64,000 nucleotides of DNA. Origin: Girardia tigrina (Eukaryota). Every line of letters starts with the position of its first letter. Positions within the stretch are counted from its first letter, which is position 1. The stretch is from assembly GCA_001938485.1 (NCBI GenBank), contig MQRK01218924.1:1-64000 (forward strand), read 5' to 3'. The position numbers and the translations under genes were made by a program. This document shows, piece after piece, positions 1,801 through 47,060 of the stretch. Under the pieces are notes generated by a model. That model was not told where the DNA came from and did not search any database. It worked only from the letters and a program-made list of their open reading frames with translations.

Positions 1801-4260
1801 ACTCATAAACTGAAGAAGACAAATTAAACGAATTCAAAATTGTATTTTTATTAAAAACGGTTTATTTAAACAAGAAATAATTAATTTCTTTTAATTTTTT
1901 TAAATGTATAATTTAATTTTGTGAAATTAAATTATATCATTACAGATGTAATCAAACACACATTGTATGTTCTTGTCATCTTTACCAGCACAGAACTGTT
2001 GTGATCCTATACTTCTGATTCATTTCATAAAATCAGAGCGGTACCTTACTTCATTGATGCTCCTCTCGTTGATAATCGGTATTTCAAGCACCATCTTGAA
2101 AAAATATTTACATAAGGGCTATTTCACAAAATTTTGTGCTGATTCTTTGTTATAAATGATAGATAAATTGTATATTCGTTAGACGAATGGTACAGTTTTT
2201 TTACACGGTTTATAAGTTTATTATGCTAGGAGCCGCATTTCTCGTCCAATCATATTTGACCCTCACGAGGGTGTTTCTCGTTCTCTTTCATTTTACTCTG
2301 GGAATAGTTGTTCATTTTGCATATATATAGGCGCATATCGAATGACAACATCGCTTTTATTGTAATAGATCGAGTTTGTTTATCATTTATTATCGATCGT
2401 TCATACGAAAGATATATACTTCACAAATTCCTTCGGCCATATTCTTCAAATCATTGTTATCGTGAATCGGAGTGATATTGAAATCTTTTGATAATTTCGA
2501 CATTATCAAATTACAAAGAAACAAAAATAATTTTCATTTAAAAAATTGTGTTGGGATTCCGCATTTTAACATATCATTAAAACAACAAACAAAATGTTAG
2601 AAAAATCTATCGCAGCAAGTTAATAACAAATTAACGAATTTAAAAATTAATTTATTTTAACCTTAATGTGCCTCAAGTTCGATTAACCATCACAAATTTC
2701 CGCACCAATGCTCCTTACAAATAGCCAACAGGAACTTTATGTGATCCACTAAATACTAATCCACAAAGAATAAATTTTAATACTGTGAAGAGAAATATCC
2801 TAGATTCATTCCATCTACTTTCAATATGTAAATTATTACTCTCATTTCGATAAACAATATAAGCTCGAATAGCTATCTGCAACGTTTTATATCTCGGCTT
2901 TGTTTAGGCTTTGAACACTTTCTTATTCTAACTTATAACAGACTTATAGCAGACGAATTTATACTCACACACAGTGCTTTTTTTCTTGTAAAAAAGGTTT
3001 GCGAACTCATTTTGTATCTGTTTTTACCTTATGTAAGAAAGTACTATAATTGAATTTTCCCACTAAACACAAATTTATTTTACAGGAAATTTAAAGACAA
3101 ACGTTTTTATAAGAAAATTATAGACTCAAAGAGTTTATTTATAATAAAAACCGACCTGACTAAAGTTTATGTGGAAAAATCAAAAATGTATTCTACTGTA
3201 CCGTGATACTGTACCGTATTAGGCTTTAAAACAACTTCCAGAGTTTTCTCTTGTTTTCATCAGACAAATCATCTCGATTTCTTTTCTTACTTTGTGAGTT
3301 TAGAGCTGAATGTTGCCTCGAAGGAGCCAAGAGTCTACGTACTTTGTAGGATCAAATATGTTAGTGGAGGGCTGACCATTCTGATGAATAAAAGTGCCGA
3401 GACTGTTTTTGTCATAAGCAAAGCTCTCGTTGGAGTGATTATCAAATTCATTTGTGAGAATCCCCTTTCACACTCGCTGGAAGAAATGGAAATTGTATTA
3501 AGAGCATGTATCAGAGGAAGAATTCTTTCAGAATATGTTCTTTCCGTAAGATAATACGAATCCATGAATGATTTCTCTTGCGTTAAGTTACAGCCTGCTA
3601 CACAATTTCTCAATTTACGCTTCTCCAAATGTCAACTTGTTGTTCATGTTATCTGTTCAATGGCTCTGATCTAGCATGCTAGTTCATTGAGCTAGTTCAA
3701 CATCATAATTAGACAGTAATCTTTTCGCAATTGATTCGCTAAGTTTCTCATAAAAGACATTTGCATCAATAGGAGGGTCATTTTTGCAGTTTCTGTTGTG
3801 TAGTACAATTTCATTAAATATTAGATGCTCAGCAGCTGCTGTTGCACTCCTGTAGTATGGGCCTGGATTTTCCCTTCGTTCCACAAACACCTGTACGAGT
3901 GATTTTATTTTTTGAATCGCTTTGTAAAGATTCATGTTTCGCTGCTGTAGGTCCAAGCTCAATTCAGATAACTCTTGAAGAGCATTACACATCAGACCAA
4001 GATCCATCACAAATTCAGTTGATGCTATTTTCTTCTTCAACACTTCATATGTACATTTCTCATTGTTACTTCTTATGGGATCAGTCATTGCTTCTTCAAA
4101 ATGATTTATCAGAGCTGCATAATTATTCCACACTGCAAACACTGCACGGAAACTTGACGAAATCCATCGCGTACTTAAAACCCGTCCAATTTTTAATAAC
4201 TCTACTTCAAGTAATTTAGCACATGAATGCAGTTCTCTACTATTTCTTCGAGAAGCATGG

Positions 4261-6120
4261 TGTAATACTCTACTTCCTCGTGGTTGGTGTGTGTATGTGG
4301 TTTTTCTTTCATTTGTCTCTGTACTTGACCTTGATTGATTTGAGTGTTCGCTGTACTTAGGCATGTCTTGAGCGTGTTGTATGCTGTGTTTGCTTACGAT
4401 CCCATCGGANNNNNNNNNNNNNNNNNNNNNNNNNNNNNNNNNNNNNNNNNNNNNNNNNNNNNNNNNNNNNNNNNNNNNNNNNNNNNNNNNNNNNNNNNNN
4501 NNNNNNNNNNNNTGAAACTTCAAAAGTCCATAGTCACTACTTTAAAATTTCTAATAAACCTATCGAAATATCTGGCCAGAAAAGACAATTTAGTCAATGC
4601 CTAAATTCAAATCTCTCAGTTATGCCAAATGTCTTACATGAAAAANNNNNNNNNNNNNNNNNNNNNNNNNNNNNNNNNNNNNNNNNNNNNNNNNNNNNNN
4701 NNNNNNNNNNNNNNNNNNNNNNNNNNNNNNNNNNNNNNNNNNNNNNNNNNNNNNNNNNNNNNNNNNNNNNNNNNNNNNNNNNNNNNNNNNNNNNNNNNNN
4801 NNNNNNNNNNNNNNNNNNNNNNNNNNNNNNNNNNNNNNNNNNNNNNNNNNNNNNNNNNNNNNNNNNNNNNNNNNNNNNNNNNNNNNNNNNNNNNNNNNNN
4901 NNNNNNNNNNNNNNNNNNNNNNNNNNNNNNNNNNNNNNNGAATATAATTAACTGTAATTGCTTGCCGTTAGGTTTTAAATGACGTTCATGAATATTCCTG
5001 GATTTTTGTTATCCTAATAAATTTATTATTATGCAAGGTGAATTATTTTGTTTTTTTTTGGCTTGGGTTTTTTTATATTAAACTTTTATTTGTGGTTTAA
5101 CGTTATTTTGTTTATTTATTTTTTATTTATTCGCAAGTAAGATTTGCTATTTCGAAATTGTCGAAATAGTAAATTTTACAGTGGTGTCAGAAGTGGGATA
5201 TTACAATAGTACCCCGCCAAGAAGAGCGGAGCTATGGTGTTTTTTTAAATTATTCTTTGATTATGTAAAATTTACTTTTGATAGTTTTACATGTGGAGTC
5301 ATTAATCAAACTAACATTCAATTCATCGAATCGTTTCGTTGAACAAAATCTTAGCCTCTTTTGATTAACAATGTTGTGTATTCCATTCATATCCAGTGTG
5401 AAAGAATGTTTCATTTGATTTATAATTTTGTATGGTCCTTCCAATGTATTGGTGATGTTATTTCTTACCATTGCCGATAAGTCTGTGAATGTGCCATCAA
5501 TAGGATTGGTAAATATGTCGAGAGGTTCCATAGATTTCTTGCATTCGTTATTGTTTTCTGTGGCGAATAACGTTGATTGTTTTTTGTTATTGTCGAAATT
5601 TATTGGGTTGTAGTTTTCAGGTTTGACTTCTGAATTTATTGAATTTGTTGTGGTTTGTACGAATTTGTTTAGTGTTGTATATTCTGTCTGCATTGATTGG
5701 TTATATGTTCTCAAAAGATTTGTCGAGGTTTCACGATCTAAACTTGTTGTATCGTTTGATTGTGTGTAGTTATCTACTAATTTTTTTATTAGTGTGTGTT
5801 CGGTTTGTGACTGTACGTTTTTATTCGCTAATTTCTTACAAAGATCAAACTGATTTTTTGATTGTAAAAGGTTTTCTTTTGTTTTTGTAGATTTGATTGT
5901 AGAGAGTGTTTTTTTTGTACGAGATTCGCGGTCTGTGGATTCTGATAAAGTACTTTCTATATATAAATATTTGTGATTATTATGGTAGTTTTTTGTGTTT
6001 TCTAATATTTAAAATGGTTTTGTAAAATTTCTGTTGTATTCTTTTGAATTTGTTGCATTTGTTTTTATAAAAATGTAATTGTTTGCCTTTTTCTTCAATT
6101 TTGAATTGTAAAATGTTCGT
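4261..6120. mobile_element. Rearranged Gypsy insert: LTR(+) and PBS joined to the inverted integrase C-terminus/PPT
   Basis: Starts TGTAAT (4261); LTR-like end TTACA (5180); PBS 5182-5199; minus-strand ORF 5250-5714 with a GPY/F-type motif (EGPYKII...NIVNQKRLR); flanked by a 39-bp direct repeat 4223-4261 / 6121-6159. Contains two N gaps. Confidence 0.7.
5182..5199 (+). promoter_or_regulatory. Retrotransposon primer-binding site complementary to the tRNA-Leu 3' end
   Basis: TGGTGTCAGAAGTGGGAT, 1 nt after the LTR-like ...TTACA; reverse complement of ATCCCACTTCTGACACCA. Confidence 0.85.
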
Positions 6121-8429
6121 ATGAATGCAGTTCTCTACTATTTCTTCGAGAAGCATGGTATATTACGTATAGCTTATCAAGGAATGATTTAAACCTATTG
6201 ACTCCTGAAACGTCCTTTACGGTATCTACTACTGATAGTTCAAGTCTGTGATTAGCACAGTTCCAGAATATCACCAATGGAAATTTATCAGTAAGTAGCT
6301 TCTTTACTCCACTTCTGCATCCCAACATGACTGATGCAGCATCACACGTAACAGAAACTAAATAGTTCTTTAAGTATTCTTCACCCATCCCGTAATATTT
6401 AAGACAGTCTAGTAATGCAGTAAAGATTCAGTTGGCTGTGACACTTTGAAGTTCGACTAAGTCCAGAAATAAATTTACTGGTTTTTGCATTTCAGTACCT
6501 TCTATACAACTTCACAAGTACACTATAAGGGTTTATTTTTCACTCAATGTCGTAGTCTCATCGATCATTAGTGACATTTTACTTTTGGAGTTAACCACTT
6601 CTTTGATCAGCTTCTGTCTCATTTCAGTGCTAATATGGTTCACAATATTAATGCATGCATTTGTCGAATGTAGAATGCGACCCATGTCTATTCCCTTCAT
6701 TTCTTGTAAATCAATTTCCATTTCAAAGTTATTAAATGACTGATTTCGTTTTGCAACTTTGTATGCAGTGCGAAAAATTTTAGCCGTTACTGTTTTCTCA
6801 CGTGTCAGTGACTTTAAAACTACGTTTTCAAGCTTTTCCTTTTCTACTTCTGTTAATATCTTTACATCAGTTTGATGTCCAACAGATTCCTTGTGAAGCA
6901 AAATTTTCTTTCGGAGTGAATTCTGCTGTGTCCTTTTTTCATCTCCGTAACAAGATACTTCGCCATCAGTACATTCTTTCGATATTTTCATGCCAATTTT
7001 TGCTTCTATGCCAAGTGTTCCAACCTTTCGGCAGACTGTACAGTCGAGCTTTTTTCTTCTAACGCACAGCCACTTATATCTTCCGCAGAAGTCTAATTTT
7101 TGCTCCGATGTCAAACAATTTGACTGATCATTGTCCAAGTCTATGTCTACATCGCCTACATACGTTTGTTCTGAGATTATCGTTTGAATATCATTGCCTT
7201 CCGCAAGTTCTTGTTTCAATTGTTTGCTTACCGGAGCAGCAGCTGGGAAAAAACTTGAGATTTTCTTCATTTCAAGGCTTTTTTGTTTGTTTAATTATTA
7301 TTAATTTTAAGACTGTAAAATATAAAATGACATCAAATAATTATTTACCAAATAATTTAATCAATATGGCCACGCCCTCTGAAAAGGCTATACCATAGAT
7401 ATCATATCAAATATTAGAGAATAACAGCATTTGCTACTTGGTACATTTATATAGCTTATTGTTTATTTGTAAACCGTAATTTATGTCGTTCCCGTGAGTC
7501 CCCGCTGTAAAAAGGACTGACAGTAAGTAAAACGCCGATAATTTTATATAAATATAAACGAATCTGTCAAAAAAGGTATGGGAACTGAGTTCCCATGAGT
7601 TCCTACTGAAAAAAAGCACTGCTCACACATCATTCTTTGGTTAACCTTCAGGATTCTGTATGATACATAAGCACGTCAACCTTCATTGGGTTTTAGTTGC
7701 ATCTATTTCATAGTTCGTGGAATGAATTCCTGTTTATTTACTTAAAACTGATTATTTCTTTTAAGAACAAGATTTTTATTATATTTATTATAAGTTACAA
7801 TGTGACCCATTCAAAATAAGCTTTTGATATATTTTATTATTGGTTGGAAGAGGATTAAATTGAGTAATTATATTTAACGATTCTTTGTATTTGTAGTTTT
7901 CTATTCTTATATTCTATTCTAAATTTAAAAACAAAAAATGTCTATCATCAGCATCTACTCCCGCGTGGAAGGTATTAAATTTTTGAATGGAAATGGGCAA
8001 TGCTCAGAGCTGCAGTAAGAAACATGACGAAAATGACACTTTAAGTGTTAAGCAAATTCTATCAAAATTTTTAAATTTTTTTCTTTCGTATGCATTTACT
8101 TTTCGTAAGTCTATTTCATTTTTTGAAATTTATTACCCTCCAGTTTTCACTGCTTTTCCATCCAGCGTTACGTTCGCTATCTACATTGAGCCACAACAAT
8201 AATAAATGATACACAGCTATTATGTACAAACAACTTTTTAGCATTCGTATTAAACATTTCTTTGAGTTAACATTATAACTTATGTCGCGAAATCGCCAGA
8301 TCACTTCTAATATCGCAATGGATTGCGTGAGGCATAATTCACAAGTATTGGACTATAGGATAAGCATTGACAAGACGAAGTGTGGTTGACATATTATTTT
8401 TTTAGCATCTTGTATTTTACACCTGCACA

Positions 8430-8700
8430 ATCTTAGATTTGAAGCGTCAGCAGTGGGTTTGAACACTAAATGACGTACTTTTCTACATTTTCGACAAAAA
8501 ACATATTGACCTTTACAATTATTTGACCTTAACGAAAGACAGAAACGCAGAAGATTTTAGTTGGGATACCACTAAATGGTGTGGTGTAATCTTCAGCAAT
8601 GAAACAGCATTATCTCTACTTGAACTTCATAGTTTTTATGTGATTCGCAGCCGGGGAGACTCTATAAGGCCGGATGCCTTTGTCTCACGACATCAATGTA
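8430..8700 (+). mobile_element. Tc1-like transposase remnant
   Basis: Degenerate W..VIFS(D)E motif (TKWCGVIFSNET) in ORF 8523-9113. Confidence 0.4.
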
Positions 8701-9380
8701 ACTATATATATTATATAACTACAATAATAAACTTCTTTCATTTATCTATTTTCATAACTGGGACAGCATTTACCTTCTTGGTCTATTTTGGCTTCACCTC
8801 CTTACGTTCAATCAATAATGGAACATTTCAAGGAGTGAAATATTCAAGAAGTTCCAAGGACATAAATCGCCAAAACTTATATCGTTTCAAAAGAACTCAC
8901 ACATTTATTAAAAAAAATATTGGCAACAAAATTTGGATCTTCTTTGGGACAATCCTAGGTAGACCTTTCATTGATATAAGTCACTTGAAGATATTAGTAC
9001 TAAATTCAAATTATCTGACTCAGAATTTGACACTAAAATGTTCTCTCTCTCTCTATATATATATAGGTATGTATGTGTGTGTTTGGTTCTTCACACATCG
9101 CCAGTTCTGCTAACCAAAAATGGCCCACTAGGCATTTGTATTCGATGTACACCTCCAACAAAAATATTAAAGAGAGGCGCACTTCGAACTCATTTAAAGT
9201 TTGAGAATAAGTCAAGAACATTTCACCCCCAATACTTCTAATCATTCGCTTTACCAGGTTCAACGATGGAAACATGGTTATACATTTTCTGTCAATTTTC
9301 TCTTAATATGAGCACATTTTTGAGCATTTCATATTTTACGACATTTTGCAAAAATTTCTGACTGGGCAATGAAGAACAAT

Positions 9381-9446
<66 letters not shown>

Positions 9447-10050
9447 TANNNNNNNNNNNNNNNNNNNNNNNNNNNNNNNNNNNNNNNNNNNNNNNNNNNN
9501 NNNNNNNNNNNNNNNNNNNNNNNNNNNNNNNNNNNNNNNNNNNNNNNNNNNNNNNNNNNNNNNNNNNNNNNNNNNNNNNNNNNNNNNNNNNNNNNNNNNN
9601 NNNNNNNNNNNNNNNNNNNNNNNNNNNNNNNNNNNNNNNNNNNNNNNNNNNNNNNNNNNNNNNNNNNNNNNNNNNNNNNNNNNNNNNNNNNNNNNNNNNN
9701 NNNNNNNNNNNNNNNNNNNNNNNNNNNNNNNNNNNNNNNNNNNNNNNNNNNNNNNNNNNNNNNNNNNNNNNNNNNNNNNNNNNNNNNNNNNNNNNNNNNN
9801 NNNNNNNNNNNNNNNNNNNNNNNNNNNNNNNNNNNNNNNNNNNNNNNNNNNNNNNNNNNNNNNNNNNNNNNNNNNNNNNNNNNNNNNNNNNNNNNNNNNN
9901 NNNNNNNNNNNNNNNNNNNNNNNNNNNNNNNNNNNNNNNNNNNNNNNNNNNNNNNNNNNNNNNNNNNNNNNNNNNNNNNNNNNNNNNNNNNNNNNNNNNN
10001 NNNNNNNNNNNNNNNNNNNNNNNNNNNNNNNNNNNNNNNNNNNNNNNNNN

Positions 10051-10086
<36 letters not shown>
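9381..10086. repeat. (CA)n/(TA)n microsatellites flanking an assembly gap
   Basis: CA run then TA run before the N block (9449-10050); TA run after it. Confidence 0.9.
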
Positions 10087-10088
<2 letters not shown>

Positions 10089-10199
10089 CTTTTTATAATT
10101 TTGGTGCTTGCTTTTTAAAAGATTTGGATATGTTTACTTTAATTTATACTATATATGATTATTAACATTGAAAAGTATTCAACTTTGTTACGATTTTAG

Positions 10200-11251
10200 G
10201 TTACCTACCCATGCTGTAATGAAACTTATCCTGATATTACCTTTACCATTTTAATGAGAAGACGTACTTTATATTACCTTTTCAACATAATTCTTCCATG
10301 TCTTTGGTTAACGGTGCTCAGTCTTTTAAGCTTTTGGCTTCCTCCAGATTCGGGAGAAAAAATCACTCTTGGAATTACAGTGTTGCTGGCATTTTCCGTG
10401 TTTATGTTGCTCATCGCGGAAAAAATGCCGGCAACAAGTGAATTTGTGCCACTTATAGGTACAAACTAATATGTAATAAATTGTTATTATTAATTTTCGT
10501 AGGTATATATCTGACTGTCATAATGGCAACAACGTCTCTATCAATCGTGCTAACAGTTCTGGTTTTACATATCCATCATATTGGCCCGAATCACAAATCT
10601 ATACCTCCGAAAATAAGACATTTATTTTTTGATAATTTAGCTCCAATGTTAGGTATGACAACAGTTCGTCGGTATAAAATAAGGAAACGTAATAACGAAA
10701 GCATAAACCGTGGACAATTTTCCATGTCATATGCAGATAAGTTTTCATCAAAAGAATTTCTGCCAAATGAGAGGCATCACCATCACGGCAATAAATCTAA
10801 TTCAGCTTCAACGTCAGCTCCCCATATGTTATGTGACAAAAACGACTTTAATGTTTCTAAAATAACAATGTTTGACTGTGTCAATTCGAACTCAGATAAT
10901 AGTACTGATCACTTAGTCGTTGAAAATAAAAGTGCAGACTATTCGAATACTTTTTCGTGTTCAAGTACTCCTCCTATGAAAGAAGAAGGAATTCGTACGA
11001 CCTCCTTGGGAGAAAATATTATTTCTGATCGTAATGTTTTGTGTCAAAATACCATCAATCAGTATTCAGAAATCGTTCGGCATTTGCATCATTTGATAGA
11101 AAAACATCAGGAAGACGAACAGGATCAGGAAATGATGATTGAATGGAAAGTGATGGCATATGTTTTAGATCGATGTTTGTTTTGGATATTCGCTACGGTA
11201 GCCGGGCTAGCTACCATCATAATTTTGTTAATAATGCCATTATTTAAATAA
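10200..11251 (+). CDS. Nicotinic acetylcholine receptor alpha-type subunit, last two exons (10200-10458, 10503-11251): loop C and TM1-TM4
   Basis: Exon reads [15 protein letters not shown] (vicinal Cys, alpha type), [32 protein letters not shown], then [11 protein letters not shown] before TM4. The 44-bp GT-AG intron 10459-10502 keeps frame; stop at 11249-11251. Upstream exons not seen. Confidence 0.93.
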
Positions 11252-22982: not shown

Positions 22983-23249
22983 GAAGATCGAGTGTCGTGG
23001 GAGTTACCTTGAGTGAGCTAAAAGTGATCAATATTGTTTGTGAGCTAAATATATTGTTTGAGCTAAAGTGATCAATAGAAGACAGATTGATGAACATTGC
23101 AAATATGGAGATATGCGCGATGGATCCCTATATAAGTAAAAATCAATATACCGAAAAAAAAGGCTACAAAATGCGAAATGTAAGTTAAAACTACAAACTG
23201 GTACAAAGTTGTACGATTGCGTAAATAAATTCAGAAATATTTTCTTGGC

Positions 23250-24650
23250 TTGTAAGAGGAAAAACGACTTTAGTTGAACACGAAATAAAAACCGCAGGGG
23301 AACCAATTCTACAAAAACCTCGTCGACAACCGGCCAATTTGGAAATGCATATTGATGAAGCTATAATGAATTTAGAGAATCATGTGATTATAGAGAAATG
23401 TTCATCACCGTGGAATACGCCGATGGTTTGCGTATGGAAAAAAGAAAAGAGAGAAATTCGGCTTTGTCTGGATTTTCGACTATTAAATCAGGTTACGGAA
23501 AGACCAGCTTTTCCTATACCAAACATCGAGGAAATGTTAGAATCTCTAAATAGAATGAAATGGTTTAGCACTATAGATTTAGGCAATGTACATTATCAGG
23601 TAGAGTTGGAAGAAAGATCGAAATTAAAAACGGCATTTTCGACTAAGACAGGACAATATTGTTTTACTAGGATGTCGTTTGGTATAACGGCTGCACCAGC
23701 AACGTTTCAAAAATTAATGACAGATGTTTTAAAAGAGATGCTGTGGAAGGAAGCCCTGGTATATTTAGACAACATCTTAATATTTTCTGAAACAAAAGCA
23801 CAACATTTTGAGAGGCTCGAAAGGTTGTTTTCGAGAATTCATACAGTAGGACTACGAATAAACACATACAAAATGTAGATTTTTTCAAAAAGAGCTAAAG
23901 TTTCTGGGTTAAAACAATTCAAGATTTCGAGAGGCCGAAATGCATAAAAAAAACTACGTAGTTTTTTTTAGGATTGCGCAACTATTATAGAAAATTTATT
24001 AAGGACTATTCAAAATTGTCAAAACCATTAGAAGAGTTGTGTGGAAGTACAAATAACTTTCTGTATTGGTAAGAATTTTCTACCGAATCCTTTAATAAGT
24101 TGAAGGAAGTGCTGTCCACTACACTAGCATTATATTATCAGGATTTCAAGAAAGAATTCATATTAGATACCGATGCTTCATTTGACACAATAGGTGCTGT
24201 ATTGACACAGCTAAATGACGATGGAAATGAACAAGTAATTGCGTATGGATCAAATACGATGTCAAAACATGAGATTGGTTATTGTATTACGAGGAAAGAG
24301 CTACTAGCCATTTTTCACTTTACCCAACATTTGAAACACTATTTATATGGTGCCCGATTTAAATTGAGAATAGACCACAAGGCAATAGAATTTATGATGA
24401 CCACAAAGAAAGCAATAACGTCCCAATTTCAGAATTATATGAATTATTTAAGTAGTTTAGATATGAAGTTAAAATACCGGAAAGGAACACTACATCAGAA
24501 TGCAGATGCGTTGTCACAGAAAGATTGTATGACATGTGCACAGTGTCCTTTGATACACAAACAGGCGAAATCAAATAGACCACGAAAGAGAATGCTAGCA
24601 TTAAATGAGTACATGTCACCAATTCCGTGGAAAACTAATATTGAAGTGAG
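23250..24650 (+). mobile_element. Degenerate Gypsy pol (RT and RNase H)
   Basis: SSPWNTP, RLCLDFRLLN, KTAFST, YLDN (decayed YLDD), FILDTDAS, ITRKELLA, HQNADALS. Confidence 0.93.
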
Positions 24651-26834
24651 AAGTGACTCTGTGCACTTTTGTTAACGGGTTGCCGGACGAAGGGAAGAAG
24701 CAATTGCGGGAGACGATTTCAATAGCAATGTTGGAGCTACCTCAAGTGGTAGAAAAGGCCAGATTGTTGGTGGGATCAGGTGAAACGTGCTTTATTGGGT
24801 TGAAAACCTTAGCTATGGGGCAGAACATGTGTTTCAAGTGTTTTTTCAAGCCCGAAACTGCTCAAAGGACGCTGATATTAATTGTAATATTATAGGTCAT
24901 ATATTCCGAAATTGGAAAAAGTCAAAAAACGAGCAAGGAGAAGTACGCAACTCTGCGCCAGTGACTTCTCCAGATTTTGGGCGCAACAGTTACCAGTCTT
25001 ATATGTAATTTTCACTTGTCAGAAAGCGATAATTCTCTTAGACACCGGATGCTTCCGATCGATAGTAGTGACTGGGAAGGAGCAGAGGGTTGAGGAAGAG
25101 ATAATAATTATGTTATCTGGAGCGGAAATGGAGTGTTTTCGATCGAGTCGAATGAGTGTGGAGGTAATTGGTAAGAGATTGGACAAAGATTGTTTGTGGC
25201 GAACGTTGTTCCGGGGATCGATATATTATTAGGTATGGATGCTTTGGATCAATTGGGTAGTATAAAAATGGGTGCTAACGGTCGAGTTATGAGTTGCAGC
25301 GACGTTAAATTCGGTGGTATGTTGACGATATCAGCAACGGAGTTGGAGATCAAGGACATGGATTTCGATACTGTGTTTGCAGATGGAATTTGGACGGTAA
25401 ATTGGAAATGACTCGATGACTCCCCGGTGTTGCGGAATCACGTCACATGGTATAACGTTCCCGCGGAACACAAGGAAGAGTTCACTAACAAAATTGAAGA
25501 ATGGATATCTTCCGGATGGTTGTCAAAGTACGACGGTCCGAATGATGGAATAATACCATTTATGGCGGTTATACAACGAAACAAGTCAAAGGTGCGACCT
25601 GTAATGGATTACCGAGAACTGAAAGAGTATACATCGAACCATACTTCTCAAGGAAATATTTGCGGCAGCAAATTTCGTTTGTGGCGTCAGATGGGAGATG
25701 ACTTGGCTATCGTGGATCTTCTAAAGACATATCTCCAAATCAAAGTAGATCCATAATTGTGGAAACATCAAGTGATGGAGAACAACGAACAAAAGTATTG
25801 TCTAACTCGTCTCGGATTTGGCCTCAACGTCGCACCTAAAATCATTACTGCCATACTGAATAAGGTTTTATCGATGAATTCCAGCATACGGGCCGGTACT
25901 GATTCTTACACTGATGACATCGTTGTGAACACAAAAATAATTTCTTGTGACACTATTATTAATTATTTAAACGTTTAGGGTTAGAAGCAAAAGAGCTGGA
26001 GAGTGCGGAGGGTGGTTGGATATTGGAATTGCGTTTGGAAAGGCAGAGCGGGGAGTTGATTTGGAAACTGGACAATATAGTAGATCCAACGGAAGGTATC
26101 CAACTCGGAGACAATTATTCGCTTGGTGTGGTCAGATGATTGGTCATTTTACAGTAGCGGGATGGTTGCGCCACGCGTGCAGTTATATTAAAAGGATGGC
26201 GAACTAGGTAGACTAGGATGGAAAAATCACTTATCATGTCTCATCCATGATCTACAGTTTACAAAAGCGAATTCTTATGGAAGGTGATCCAGTAGGGGGC
26301 GTATGGAAGGGTTCATCAAATTGAGTCACAAAGATATGGTGTAATGCAAGTAGTATTGCTAGTGGGATTTGTTTAGAAGTGGACGGTCGTATAGTAGAAG
26401 ATGGGTCATGGTTAAGGAAGGTCGACGATGGGGCTCATATCAACCTGGCCGAATTGGATGCAGTGATTTGTGGAATAAATCTGGTAATTTCATAGAAGTT
26501 GAAGACCATAGAAGTGTTAACAGACTCATCAATGGTGCACGGATGGTTACAGTCATTAATTTCAGGGGATAAACCTATCCGTGTCAAATGCTTTGGTGAA
26601 GTACTGAGAAGGCGCAGGTTGGCAATTATCGAAGATCTGATGATGGAAAATGAGTTGGTAGTACCCGTTGATCTGGTAAAGTCTGGGGAAAACAAAGCAG
26701 ACACACTGACTCGAGTGCCGCGGTCATGGTTAGTTAAGGCTATTGTGTTGGTCGCCATAGATGAACGGAAAATGTTGCAAGAACTCCACGATGTTCACCA
26801 TTTTCGAAAAGACAAAATAAATTGTTTTAGTTGA
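24650..26834 (+). mobile_element. Second, distinct degenerate Gypsy element (gag end, zinc knuckle, protease, RT, RNase H)
   Basis: LLDTGC protease motif, KVRPVMDYREL, RLGFGLNVAP, SYTDDI, HINLAELDA, NKADTLTRVP; many stops and frameshifts. Confidence 0.9.
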
Positions 26835-27109: not shown

Positions 27110-28454
27110 TTGTTCCAAAAATTATTTTAAAATAATTCATTCTCAAATCATAACAATTTAGCTTGATGTCAACTGATGAAGGTTTGTTGAAAGTTGTCCT
27201 AAAAACATTTCGGATTGTGATAATATTAAACATTTTGAAAACAATATTAATGTTTTTCATATTTGTAAAAATTCAATCTTCATATTTTCTAGGGAATCAT
27301 AGTAACACAGAATTTATAAAAACTATGTGAGATCCAAACAAGATTGAAAAGAACACAATTTGGAACTTCAATTATTTAACTTGAAAATTTTAAATGAAAT
27401 AAGTTATAATAAAATTATTTGTAATTGTTGTGAATTTAAATGTTGTTTGATATCATTCATTTCTCGTATTATTAAATTTCATGTGTTTTGAATTTACTTA
27501 CATTATTTTAATTTAATTAATTTATGTATTTTAGTGGAATAAAGTTTTGATTCGGCATACAACAGCAATATTTACATGAATTAAATTTATTAATAGAGAT
27601 TTAAGTTTTTTAAATTGTTTATTAGACTTACAATATCTTCTGAGTCCCACATTTTGTCAATTTTAATATTTTTAGTATTTCTATGTCGGATAATATCTCC
27701 TACATCAGGAATCATGTTTATATTTTTCTCTGGTAATCTGAAATTTTTAAAATTTTGAAAAAAGTCATTATGAATTTTCTCAAATATTGTCTGTAATTTT
27801 AATAAATAGTCATCGTCATCATTCTTGAATTTCATATTGTACGAAAAATATCTTTTTACCGATTCTATGTCAAACAAATCCGATTCGTTATATAAAAAAT
27901 CTATAAAGGAATCTACATTTCTCAAATAGGTGTACGGTTGGATTTTCAAAACAAAGGGGCTTCCCTCCCAAACATCAGATCGATCATCAACACCAATTAT
28001 TATCTTATCACATTTCGGAAACATATTTCTTGTTTTTTGAGCTTTATTATATCCTTCTGGTAGATTTTCTCTAGTTGTAATCCTGTGTCCAAAATATTTA
28101 TGTGTTGGATCAATGATTTGAAGACATTGCTCCACATATATTTTAGTTCCCATTGACATAAGATGTAATTCAAACATTTTACTCATTTGAAAAAGAAAGC
28201 TGTCCAGGTATGATTTTCATTGGATTAAATTTGATTTAATATATTCTTAATTTTACACAGATTATTAATAATTTTGTACAACTGATAATTCAAGTCTAAG
28301 AGTTGTCGTATATGTGATGGCGAGTGGATTTAATTGCGAAAATTTTTTTAAAAACACTAATCGTTTTAAGAGTATATATTTTCCGTGTGATTAGTCTTTT
28401 TTATTGAAGCATTCAACGAACAAGCTATCGCGGCAGATCATGTCAGTGAAGCTG
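27110..28454 (-). repeat. Left arm of a large inverted duplication; counterpart 28681-30244, continuing to ~30947
   Basis: Near-identical reverse complement of the right arm, except a 284-bp deletion (equivalent to 28925-29208) and a few SNPs. Confidence 0.92.
27590..28212 (-). pseudogene. 5'-deleted copy of the FCP1-like phosphatase, lacking the start codon and DxDxT motif
   Basis: ORF 27590-28186 has the same protein sequence as the right-arm gene from MSKMFELH onward (allowing for the right-arm T-run frameshift); the N-terminus is removed by the deletion. Confidence 0.85.
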
Positions 28455-28680: not shown

Positions 28681-29013
28681 CAGCTTCACTGACATGATCT
28701 GCCGCGATAGCTTGTTCGTTGAATGCTTCAATAAAAAAGACTAATCACACGGAAAATATATACTCTTAAAACGATTAGTGTTTTTGAAAAAATTTTCGCA
28801 ATTAAATCCACTCGCCATCACATATACGACAACTCTTAGACTTGAATTATCAGTTGTACAAAATTATTAATAATCTGTGTAAAATTAAGAATATATTAAA
28901 TCAAATTTAATCCAATGAAAATCAAAAGAAATATAATTTTTAATTTTTGAATTGTTATATTAAGAGTTTGTTAGAATATTTATATCAATAAATCTTAAAT
29001 ATATAAACAACGA

Positions 29014-29829
29014 ATGAATTTTGATTTAGATCATTGTTTTAACCTTCTTTCTGAAAGAAAATTAATTCTTATTTGTGACATGGATGAAACGTTATTGAGT
29101 ACGGTAATGTTCGATAACATGAAAATTAAATTTGAATATGAAGGTCATATCTTTTCACATTTTATTGAAGACAATGATTGTCATACTTTGTGTTTAAAAA
29201 AACGACCATACTTGGACAGCTTTCTTTTTCAAATGAGTAAAATGTTTGAATTACATCTTATGTCAATGGGAACTAAAATATATGTGGAGCAATGTCTTCA
29301 AATCATTGATCCAACACATAAATATTTTGGACACAGGATTACAACTAGAGAAAATCTACCAGAAGGATATAATAAAGCTCAAAAAACAAGAAATATGTTT
29401 CCGAAATGTGATAAGATAATAATTGGTGTTGATGATCGATCTGATGTTTGGGAGGGAAGCCCCTTTGTTTTGAAAATCCAACCGTACACCTATTTGAGAA
29501 ATGTAGATTCCTTTATAGATTTTTTATATAACGAATCGGATTTGTTTGACATAGAATCGGTAAAAAGATATTTTTCGTACAATATGAAATTCAAGAATGA
29601 CGACGATGACTATTTATTAAAATTACAGACAATATTTGAGAAAATTCATAATGACTTTTTCAAAATTTTAAAAATTTCAGATTACCAGAGAAAAATATAA
29701 ACATGATTCCTGATGTAGGAGATATTATCCGACATAGAAATACTAAAAATATTAAAATTGACAAAATGTGGGACTCAGAAGATATTGTAAGTCTAATAAA
29801 CAATTTAAAAAACTTAAATCTCTATTAAT
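29014..29829 (+). CDS. FCP1/CTDP1-like HAD phosphatase (FCPH domain only, no BRCT), intronless; 1-nt frameshift in a T-run at ~29656
   Basis: RKLILICDMDETLL (DxDxT), KKRPYLDSFL, FELHL...IIDP..KYFGHRITTR, IIGVDDRSDVW, KIQPY are FCP1 signatures. The left-arm copy has T6 and reads on to ...NLNLY stop. Confidence 0.85.
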
Positions 29830-30294
29830 AAATTTAATTCATGTAAATATTGCTGTTGTATGCCGAATCAAAACTTTATTCCACTAAAATACATAAATTA
29901 ATTAAATTAAAATAATGTAAGTAAATTCAAAACACATGAAATTTAATAATACGAGAAATGAATGATATCAAACAACATTTAAATTCACAACAATTACAAA
30001 TAATTTTATTATAACTTATTTCATTTAAAATTTTCAAGTTAAATAATTGAAGTTCCAAATTGTGTTCTTTTCAATCTTGTTTGGATCTCACATAGTTTTT
30101 ATAAATTCTGTGTTACTATGATTCCCTAGAAAATATGAAGATTGAATTTTTACAAATATGAAAAACATTAATATTGTTTTCAAAATGTTTAATATTATCA
30201 CAATCCGAAATGTTTTTAGGACAACTTTCAACAAACCTTCATCANNNNNNNNNNNNNNNNNNNNNNNNNNNNNNNNNNNNNNNNNNNNNNNNNN

Positions 30295-44611: not shown

Positions 44612-45861
44612 TTAGGTTGGGGAAAAAGAAATCCATTATTTTGGCGTGAAATTCAAAACTTTATTTAACATGTTTCGGATTGTCCTCTTGGAGTCAAATA
44701 TGCACCGTTTTGTTGTATAATTAGTTGCCATTTTGAATGTAGCTTCATAATGCCTCTCTCGTAGAAGTCTTGGTCCTTATTGGTGAAAAACTGTAGTAAT
44801 CGATTTTTACAATGTTCTATTGATCTCAATGTCTTATCACTCAGGAAATTTTGCAATGCGAGAAAAAGGTGGTAATCGTTTGGTGCCAGGTCCGAACTAT
44901 ATGGTGGATGCATTAAAACTTCCCAACCAAGCTCCCTGAGTTTCTGGTGAGTCACTACAGACGTAAGTGGTCTGGCATTGTCGTGATGGAACACAACACC
45001 TCTTCTGTTGGCCAATTATGGTTGTTTCTCATCAATTGCTATCTTCAAACGGTCCAGTTGTTGACAGTACAGATCTGAATTTTGTGTTTGGTCATACGGA
45101 AGCAACTCATAATAAATGATTCCTTTCCAGTCCCACACAGTAGAACCTTCCTGGCCGTTAGTCCTGGTTTGGCGACCGTTTGAGGTGCTTCACTGTGCTT
45201 TGACCACGATCGTTTTCGTACAATATTATCGTATGTAACCCATTTCTGATCCCCAGTAACCATCCGTTTAAGAAATGGGTCGATTTCATTTCGTTTGGCC
45301 AAGGCTTCGCAGATGGAAATTCGATCCATCATATTTTTTGGTGTTAATTGGTGTGGAACCCAAACATCAAGTTTCTTTTTGAATCCTGCTGTGCCCAAAT
45401 GGTTTAAAACCGTTTTGTGGTCGATCTTCAGCTCCTTTGCGATGCTACGACTACTAACATGCCGGTCAACTTCGATCATTGCCGAGATTTTATTGACATT
45501 TTCAACGATAGGCCTGCCTGTGCGAGGTGCATCTTTAACATCAAAAATACCTCCACGAAATCGACAAAACCAAAATTGCGTGTCATTAGCTGTTACAGTA
45601 TTGGCATCATAAACACCATTCATAATAACAGCCGCCTGGCTTGCATTTTCACCTTTATCGAATAAAAACTGTAAAATTTACCGAATTTTTTCTTTGGTGA
45701 CTTCCATTTTTAACACCCTATAACTCGAACTGAATAAAAAAAGCAAAAAATTTTTTTGTGAAATTACTGTGAAATGTTACCTTGACAAAGAGCATAAATT
45801 TGAAATTGTTTGATCGATAAATAATGAATTAAAATAATGGATTACTTTTTCCCCAACCTAA
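44612..45861 (-). mobile_element. Full-length degenerate mariner
   Basis: TIRs TTAGGTTGGGGAAAAAG.AATCCATTATTTT with TA flanks; WVPHQL, VTGDQKW, HDNARP, HPPYSSDLAP; frameshifted. Confidence 0.95.
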
Positions 45862-46099: not shown

Positions 46100-47060
46100 T
46101 TAGGTGTATAACTTAGTTTTTTGGATTTTTTTTTGCAGAACAGACAAGTTTATTTATATGACATAATAAGTCTTATTCTAATCAAAATATTTTCCATCGT
46201 TAATTATGATTTTCGACCATCTTTCAGGCAAATTATGAATTCCATCGAAAAAAAGTTTTGGTCTTTTGATGCGATCCATTGTTCCAGCCATTTTTTTATA
46301 TGTTCCTGGTTTCTGAAGTGCTGGTCCCGAAGACCGCTGTGCATTGATCGGAACAGATGATATTCTGATGGGGCACAATCTGGTGAATAGGCAGCATGCG
46401 GTAGAATTTCCCATTTAAGTGCTTCCAATGTGTTTTTTACTTGTTTTGCGACATGTGGCCGAGCATTGTCATGGAGCAAAATNNNNNNNNNNNNNNNNNN
46501 NNNNNNNNNNNNNNNNNNNNNNNNNNNNNNNNCCATTTAAGTGCTTCCAATGTGTTTTTTACTTGTTTTGCGACATGTGGCCGAGCATTGTCATGGAGCA
46601 AAATCACTGTGCGCTGTTTGTTGGCTGGAATAGGACGTTTTTCCTTCAATCTTCCTTTAGTAATGATTCCAAATCTTCATCTTTGAATCTTTTTGGTTGA
46701 CCGGAACGCTCTTTGTCACTTACGTCGAAATCTTCACTTTTGAAACGTTTATACCAGTTCTCGCAAGTCTGTTGAGTNNNNNNNNNNNNNNNNNNNNNNN
46801 NNNNNNNNNNNNNNNNNNNNNNNNNNNNNNNNNNNNNNNNNNNNNNNNNNNNNNNNNNNNNNNNNNNNNNNNNNNNNNNNNNNNNNNNNNNNNNNNNNNN
46901 NNNNNNNNNNNNNNNNNNNNNNNNNNNNNNNNNNNNNNNNNNNNTTTTAATGCCTCGATTTCAGCACTTTAAAAATCTGTACGTACGACTGTAAAATAAT
47001 GCTTATTACAAATGTTACACCATCTCTTAGAAAATCCAAAAAACTAAGTTATACACCTAA
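46100..47060 (-). mobile_element. Internally deleted, gapped mariner
   Basis: TIRs TTAGGTGTATAACTTAGTTTTTTGGATTT with TA flanks; [22 protein letters not shown]. Confidence 0.92.

Follow-up and report, generated by a model that had tools for sequence, protein, structure and literature searches.

A 1.9-kb insert with an inverted internal piece in a Girardia tigrina hAT transposon, a possible relic of aberrant Ty3/gypsy retrotransposition

A decayed hAT DNA transposon of Girardia tigrina contains an insert of ~1.9 kb in which a putative LTR and an 18-nt PBS for tRNA-Leu(CAA) are fused to an inverted piece with an LTR start, a PPT-like tract, and the tail of a Ty3/gypsy pol-like frame, and which is flanked by a 39-bp duplication of host sequence. 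We attribute it, with a probability of roughly 45%, to one aberrant retrotransposition of a tRNA-Leu-primed Ty3/gypsy element that combined mis-primed strong-stop DNA with one-ended integration. The first step, in which the strong-stop DNA would have missed second strand transfer and been mis-primed at the start of U3, is likely, and given this step, it is somewhat probable that integrase joined the U3 end and host repair joined the other end. The anatomy of the insert, the duplication, the identity of the PBS, and the microhomology at the inversion were observed directly.

The window, which is the whole stretch of 64,000 nucleotides that we analyzed, is draft sequence that is rich in AT and interrupted by 13 gaps. 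It also contains an exon of a ligand-gated ion channel and remnants of mariner, hAT, and gypsy elements. No link to the insert was found for a gag-protease remnant (643–1790) or an RT remnant (23225–24675), and no second copy of the LTR or of the internal piece was found in the window by blastn. ARAGORN detected no tRNA genes across the window, and the PBS 18-mer is accordingly not the remnant of an ARAGORN-detectable tRNA gene. Searching 4200–6200 against Rfam yielded just three matches, each far under the gathering score.

The host element (2972–7621, minus strand) has perfect 14-bp TIRs, an 8-bp TSD (2964–2971, 8/8 identical to the right copy at 7622–7629), and transposase homology, as is typical of hAT transposons. 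Its KIAA1586-like transposase frame runs from 7270 to 3229, is broken by the insert, and contains seven stops in 617 codons. Among 1922 candidates, 31 transposase homologs were found at E ≤ 1e-20, of which the best was an intact hAT relative of 716 aa (P0004) with 89% identity. Residues 1–383 of P0004 aligned to 7270–6122 at 90% without gaps (tblastn), and the alignment picked up again in the left 39-bp copy, so that the two blocks overlapped by 13 duplicated codons.

The left (4223–4261) and right (6121–6159) copies of the 39-bp sequence, both on the plus strand, are identical at 39/39 nt. Because P0004 aligns across the duplication with nothing lost, the repeat is a true target duplication with normal TSD polarity and without host loss. 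The TIRs, the TSD, and the P0004 alignment thus agree with the original prediction of an insert in hAT sequence flanked by a 39-bp duplication. Of the three exact non-simple repeats of at least 30 nt in the window, only the 39-bp repeat does not adjoin an N gap, and the other two are gap-edge overlaps. The two 39-bp copies carry the same single amino-acid difference from P0004. Their identity is only suggestive of an insertion probably later than the decay of the hAT element, since 39/39 matches would be improbable (P about 0.03) if the duplication were as old as that decay.

The two ends of the insert are unlike. The left end is flush at TG (4261), with the final base of the left 39-bp copy doubling as the T, and the right end (6120) is cut within pol sequence and has no TG/CA or att motif. 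Canonical Ty3/gypsy insertions consist of two direct LTRs or a solo LTR, with TG...CA at both host junctions and target duplications of 4–6 bp, whereas here TG was found at 4261 only and the duplication is 39 bp. Break capture by end joining would be expected to leave 0–4 nt of microhomology at each host join. The exact overlap at the left host junction is only 1 nt, and 6/8 bases of the host continuation agree with the start of the LTR (P about 0.01–0.02). At the right junction, no microhomology was visible in the insert and host sequence as they stand in the window, and no templated filler was found, with 0 shared 9-mers with nearby host sequence.

On the plus strand, the putative LTR (4261–5180) starts with a U3 segment (4261–4409) whose flush TGTAATA equals, in its 7 nt, the PPT-adjacent start on the minus-strand piece. 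Its 3' part (R/U5, 4940–5180) has AATAAA at 5016, a T-rich tract, a hairpin, and the TTACA end; a GT-rich stretch after AATAAA has been listed among LTR motifs (PMC3601003). The intervening positions 4410–4939 comprise two assembly gaps (103 N and 294 N, together 397 N within the putative LTR) around an unplaced 133-bp contig (4513–4645), whose skew is opposite to that of the rest of the insert. The 19-bp hairpin (5137–5179) had a folding energy of −25.7 kcal/mol (z −6.5) as plus RNA and −13.4 kcal/mol (z −4.6) as minus RNA.

One spacer base separates TTACA from the PBS (5182–5199, plus strand), and a tRNA PBS right after the LTR end is a trait of Ty3/gypsy elements. At 18/18 positions, the PBS agreed with nt 1–18 of a tRNA-Leu(CAA) 3'-end probe described in the literature, and the match ended at nt 18 (PMC7997516). 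The chance expectation of this 18-mer in the window is 5e-7. Leu PBSs have been found in the Mag and Mdg3 lineages (PMC3286476); the insert is without RT sequence. Synthesis of the plus strand begins at the PPT and halts when it reaches methyl-A58 of the primer tRNA (PMC3185662), so its product is the LTR plus 18 nt. The insert covers this extent, from the first base of U3 to tRNA nt 18, which supports the proposal that the LTR, if continuous across its gaps, and the PBS correspond to plus-strand strong-stop DNA, and 5199 is its presumed 3' end. All noted positions were verified, namely the 39-bp repeat, TGTAATA at 4261, TTACA at 5180, the PBS at 5182–5199, and the inverted TGTAATA at 5199–5205.

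The minus-strand part begins at the end of the PBS. The inverted TGTAATA matches at 7/7 positions, and a PPT-like G-tract, a 6-nt spacer, and the first 6–7 nt of a 3' LTR were recognized from the sequence at 5200–5218, with a similar arrangement in a control element (L003). Behind them lies the 3' end of a Ty3/gypsy pol-like frame (5265–6120, minus strand) with a low-complexity linker, a GPY/F module (5498–5265), and one internal stop. A GPY/F integrase tail upstream of the PPT is another Ty3/gypsy trait that the insert shows. The frame had no Pfam match above the cut-off, and a word-index protein search matched 0/1175 candidates. Three weak protein matches were found among 1.84 billion, one of them to a gypsy Pol (P0003) that carries RNase H, H2C2, rve, and two GPY/F modules. 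The insert aligns to the second module (40% over 78 aa), so that its tie to P0003 is a single weak module, and the same region was matched by 6/29 related Pols at E ≤ 0.01. The earlier description of this part as a PPT-like tract and a GPY tail holds with two qualifications: the 7-nt G-tract (5212–5218) with its spacer is not a pure purine run, and the tail was recognized from the three weak protein matches and not by Pfam.

The inversion junction (5190–5205) matches the reverse complement of LTR nt 1–16 at 13/16 positions, and all three mismatches retain the PBS-type base. The last 10 bases of the PBS form seven Watson-Crick and two G:T/U pairs with LTR nt 7–16, which is the top pair count among 1306 known plus-sense positions at 10 nt, a length picked post hoc after the homology had been noticed. 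At other lengths, the pairing at LTR 7–16 was equalled at 26/1310 positions (8 nt) and 9/1302 positions (12 nt). By duplex energy, the site was beaten by 6–12 sites with DNA parameters and by 1–2 sites with RNA parameters, neither of which is a true hybrid set. The 6/9 matches between the PBS end and the LTR had a P of about 0.009 by composition, and the identical pairing test on two control LTR starts gave five and six pairs. The microhomology between the PBS and the LTR start is real but modest.

Scanning a genome collection for the TTACA-N-PBS motif identified three loci, all of them gypsy elements unrelated to the insert, which served solely as controls. The PBS is followed by a 5' UTR and a gag-like ORF at all three loci, unlike the insert, where inverted TGTAAT follows, in agreement with the claim that the insert lacks 5' internal sequence after the PBS. 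L003 is an intact gypsy element primed by tRNA-Leu(CAA); its TSD is 4 bp long, and a G-tract and a spacer precede the TGTAAT of its 3' LTR. It resembles the insert in its TGTAAT...TTACA LTR, the single spacer base, the identical 18-nt PBS, the G-tract and spacer, and the GPY/F tail, but differs in its pair of direct LTRs, in the gag that follows its PBS, and in the 4-bp TSD. No similarity was detected between L003 and the window DNA (blastn, E 1e-3).

The LTR with its PBS and the minus-strand piece are likely from one family. The 7/7 and 13/16 matches favor a single family, while the gaps, the skew, and the Pol clade oppose it. The AT skew was −0.53/−0.31 in the LTR pieces versus −0.32 on the reverse strand of the ORF, and the GC skew was +0.17/+0.29 versus +0.27. 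Control LTRs exceeded their ORFs in T-richness (3/3), which eases the skew objection, but LTR and ORF agreed in the sign of the GC skew in the same controls (3/3), which does not ease it. Among 16 selected rows, P0003 grouped apart from two Leu-primed control Pols, together with proteins that we take, from motifs, to be CsRn1-like. CsRn1 elements have been reported as tRNA-Trp primed (PMC2582038), whereas the PBS of the insert is Leu.

We infer the order of events and the enzymes involved from these features. Plus-strand strong-stop DNA (U3-R-U5 and 18 nt of PBS) would fail second strand transfer, and its free PBS end would pair imperfectly with LTR nt 7–16 on a plus-sense strand. The template could be the second packaged RNA, which would account for the G:U pairs, or an upstream plus-strand fragment reaching the PPT/U3 boundary, which would account for the landing at the LTR start. 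The PBS end would be extended back through the PPT and ~0.9 kb of pol with its mismatches untrimmed, and the retained mismatches suggest a non-proofreading polymerase, either RT or Pol theta. A role of alt-EJ in normal second strand transfer is described in a review (PMC12786077). Fill-in would yield a duplex in which one end is a proper U3 end and the other is not an LTR end; integrase would join the U3 end at 4261 and host repair the other end 39 bp away, thereby duplicating the target. Consistent with this course, the inversion falls precisely at PBS nt 18, where plus-strand synthesis stops, and the insert has the pattern of one-ended integration, with one normal end, one aberrant end, and a long host duplication.

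The original prediction had invoked an aberrant cDNA captured during break repair without integrase. Its first half fits the junction microhomology, which is as expected for failed second strand transfer. The exclusion of integrase, however, is unsupported, given the flush TG at 4261, the absence of an LTR end at 6120, and the long duplication of normal polarity; one-ended integrations also duplicate host DNA (PMC5041404). Two points are less favorable to integrase: the flush TG could equally have been set by RNase H, which defines where strong-stop DNA begins at its 5' end, and one-ended HIV duplications were usually hundreds to thousands of bp (PMC5041404), compared to 39 bp here.

The main rival is capture of the aberrant cDNA with no part played by integrase, either at a staggered break or by two host 3' ends that were each extended on the tRNA-linked minus strand before annealing to each other. 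The geometry of copying from two host ends resembles L1 twin priming. We consider this capture unlikely, as it requires a 39-nt stagger of unexplained source and the chance survival of a flush TG. The left junction speaks both ways, since its 6/8 match suits repair capture but its exact overlap is only 1 nt. Precedents exist in yeast, where Ty1 cDNA intermediates have been caught at breaks (PMC11372161) and where inserts made of two inverted pieces from one locus occur whose microhomology is longer at the point of inversion than where they meet the break, in a count that excluded Ty (PMC11724301). Those yeast inserts, however, are mostly 50–300 bp (PMC11724301).

We regard as quite unlikely that the inversion predates the insertion, with a minus-strand LTR (5205–4261) and a relic antisense PBS in a 5'-truncated copy, or that it joins two co-packaged families. 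In favor of this reading are the uniform strand skew across the insert and the Pol clade at odds with a Leu PBS, and TGTAAT is a common start, as in L003; the terminal inverted bases also match better for 5205–4261 (7/7) than for 4261–5180 (6/7). A relic PBS, however, is unlikely to remain 18/18 for long, and the U5 hairpin favors the plus strand as RNA. The T-richer control LTRs (3/3) and the 13/16 match, which links 4261 to the junction, also count against this reading.

A later rearrangement of a normal element is very unlikely. It would have involved template switching, with fold-back and return to an empty homologue, or abortive gap repair after hAT excision. The flush TG would then be explained at no cost, the hAT element retains perfect TIRs and TSD, and fold-back inversions in yeast employ imperfect 10-bp microhomology (PMC11724301). 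It would nevertheless take a random switch that hit PBS nt 18 exactly and came down no more than 16 nt from where the LTR starts, and a polymerase with proofreading would be expected to have removed the mismatched end. An assembly or library chimera is less probable still. The window is a draft scaffold, with two of its 13 gaps inside the LTR and two further exact duplications that are gap-edge overlaps, and the left and right junctions sit on different contigs, so inverted chimeric reads or two alleles merged across gaps were considered. But the three junctions all lie within contigs, at least 149 bp from any gap, both contigs carry the identical hAT TSD, and two chimeric jumps plus an empty allele would be required. 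Autointegration was rejected because the central join uses no LTR end. RNA-templated twin priming of the L1 type was also rejected, since the L1 model yields diverging sense pieces and those of the insert converge.

If mis-priming followed by one-ended integration is the correct reading, the insert is a rare case in which a reverse-transcription accident of a known type has been preserved in nature. What is known of second strand transfer and one-ended integration comes mostly from retroviral vectors, yeast, and fly reporters, and a fixed natural copy with both strong-stop ends would show that such failures can reach the germline. The insert has no evident function; being a single copy within a dead transposon, it is of no evident consequence for the host and is not a working system. 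Its combination of LTR, 18-nt PBS, inverted PPT, and long duplication provides a searchable signature that annotation pipelines would record as separate, unrelated fragments. If the type recurs, the pattern of ends would distinguish integrase from break repair. It is doubtful that, owing to the complementarity between the PBS and the U3 start, the locus represents a recurrent side path of reverse transcription in this family, in which the PBS overhang primes at the PPT/U3 boundary on a plus-strand flap or RNA. Were this true, the side path would produce cDNAs whose LTR is inverted and whose TG...CA pair is new (as at 5205–4261). These would be integrated through one end, with long target duplications left behind genome-wide, and could give rise to inverted-LTR variants; the locus would then record, in nature, the failure of second strand transfer in an animal germline.

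Each ingredient of the insert is known, and their combination as a fixed natural insertion joined at PBS nt 18 is new as far as our searches reach. No natural case of this kind was found described in the literature searched, an absence that is weak because most subscription and older work lay outside its reach. Capture of Ty1 cDNA at double-strand breaks was reportedly described by Moore and Haber in 1996. Like the insert, captured Ty1 DNA shows that reverse-transcription intermediates with cDNA-only features enter chromosomes, but it involves induced breaks, NHEJ, and short pieces, and neither a long target duplication nor a PBS-to-PPT inversion is seen in the available text (PMC11372161). 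Distant inverted insertions in yeast also consist of two inverted pieces of one locus, and their microhomology at the inversion likewise exceeds in length that at the joins to the host; they differ in their genomic donors, their 50–150 bp pieces, their occurrence mostly in replication mutants, and their ends, which are not tRNA/PPT-defined (PMC11724301). In the second strand transfer of mdg4 and IAP by alt-EJ, the PBS end is likewise annealed by microhomology and a mismatch-tolerant polymerase is used, but the transfer there is correct, from PBS to PBS, whereas in the insert the PBS end met the U3 start on the wrong strand (PMC12786077).

The HIV-1 and ASLV one-ended proviruses share with the insert a normal LTR end, a truncated end, and a duplication longer than the normal TSD (PMC5041404). 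In these proviruses, viral DNA may be appended in either orientation via short homology, the free end is extended by host polymerases with either strand of viral or host DNA as template, and the most frequent outcome for the host sequence is duplication (PMC5041404). The described cases were drug- or mutant-induced in cultured cells and mostly near full length (PMC5041404), whereas the insert is a natural, fixed, 1.9-kb Ty3/gypsy product with its join at PBS nt 18 and a 39-bp duplication.

The minus-strand piece of the insert matches the gypsy Pol protein P0003 at window positions 5265-5498. P0003 is a gypsy integrase with two GPY/F modules (C-terminal integrase modules) separated by a low-complexity linker, and the linker in the GPY/F-type frame of the window is more than 200 amino acids long. 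Within the putative LTR, a 19-bp hairpin (5137-5179) extends to the final bases of the LTR and adjoins the PBS, with a z-score of -6.5 as RNA, and it could have a role in polymerase stalling or positioning. The small contig at 4513-4645, also within the LTR, showed a skew reversed relative to its neighbours, and this contig may be flipped or wrongly placed.

Two other gypsy remnants were found in the window. A decayed gag-protease remnant on the minus strand (643-1790) had a Pfam protease match (E = 0.0036) and 30-45% identity to the Pol proteins compared; a search for its LTR and PBS found neither, and no DNA link between this remnant and the insert was found. The second, on the plus strand (23225-24675), encodes RT and RNase H and belongs to a different family, since it shares about 30% identity with P0003.

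Other coding sequences included a Mos1-type mariner transposase fragment (45045-45677, minus strand) and a neurotransmitter-gated ion channel transmembrane region in a single open frame (10442-11251, plus strand). Exact duplications at 46411-46482 and 29656-30244 end at 50-N gaps, as is typical of scaffold overlaps. Two mutually inverted NIF-type phosphatase ORFs (27590-28216, minus strand; 28999-29700, plus strand) adjoin a gap-edge duplication, possibly reflecting a local inverted duplication or an assembly effect.

The control loci L001, L002, and L003 are eukaryote-type gypsy elements with a tRNA-Leu(CAA) PBS located within bacterial MAG contigs, where they are likely contamination. The L003 element is intact (4977-10736). 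In L001 and L002, a PPT or pol is present upstream of the LTR-PBS, an arrangement that resembles tandem or circular forms.
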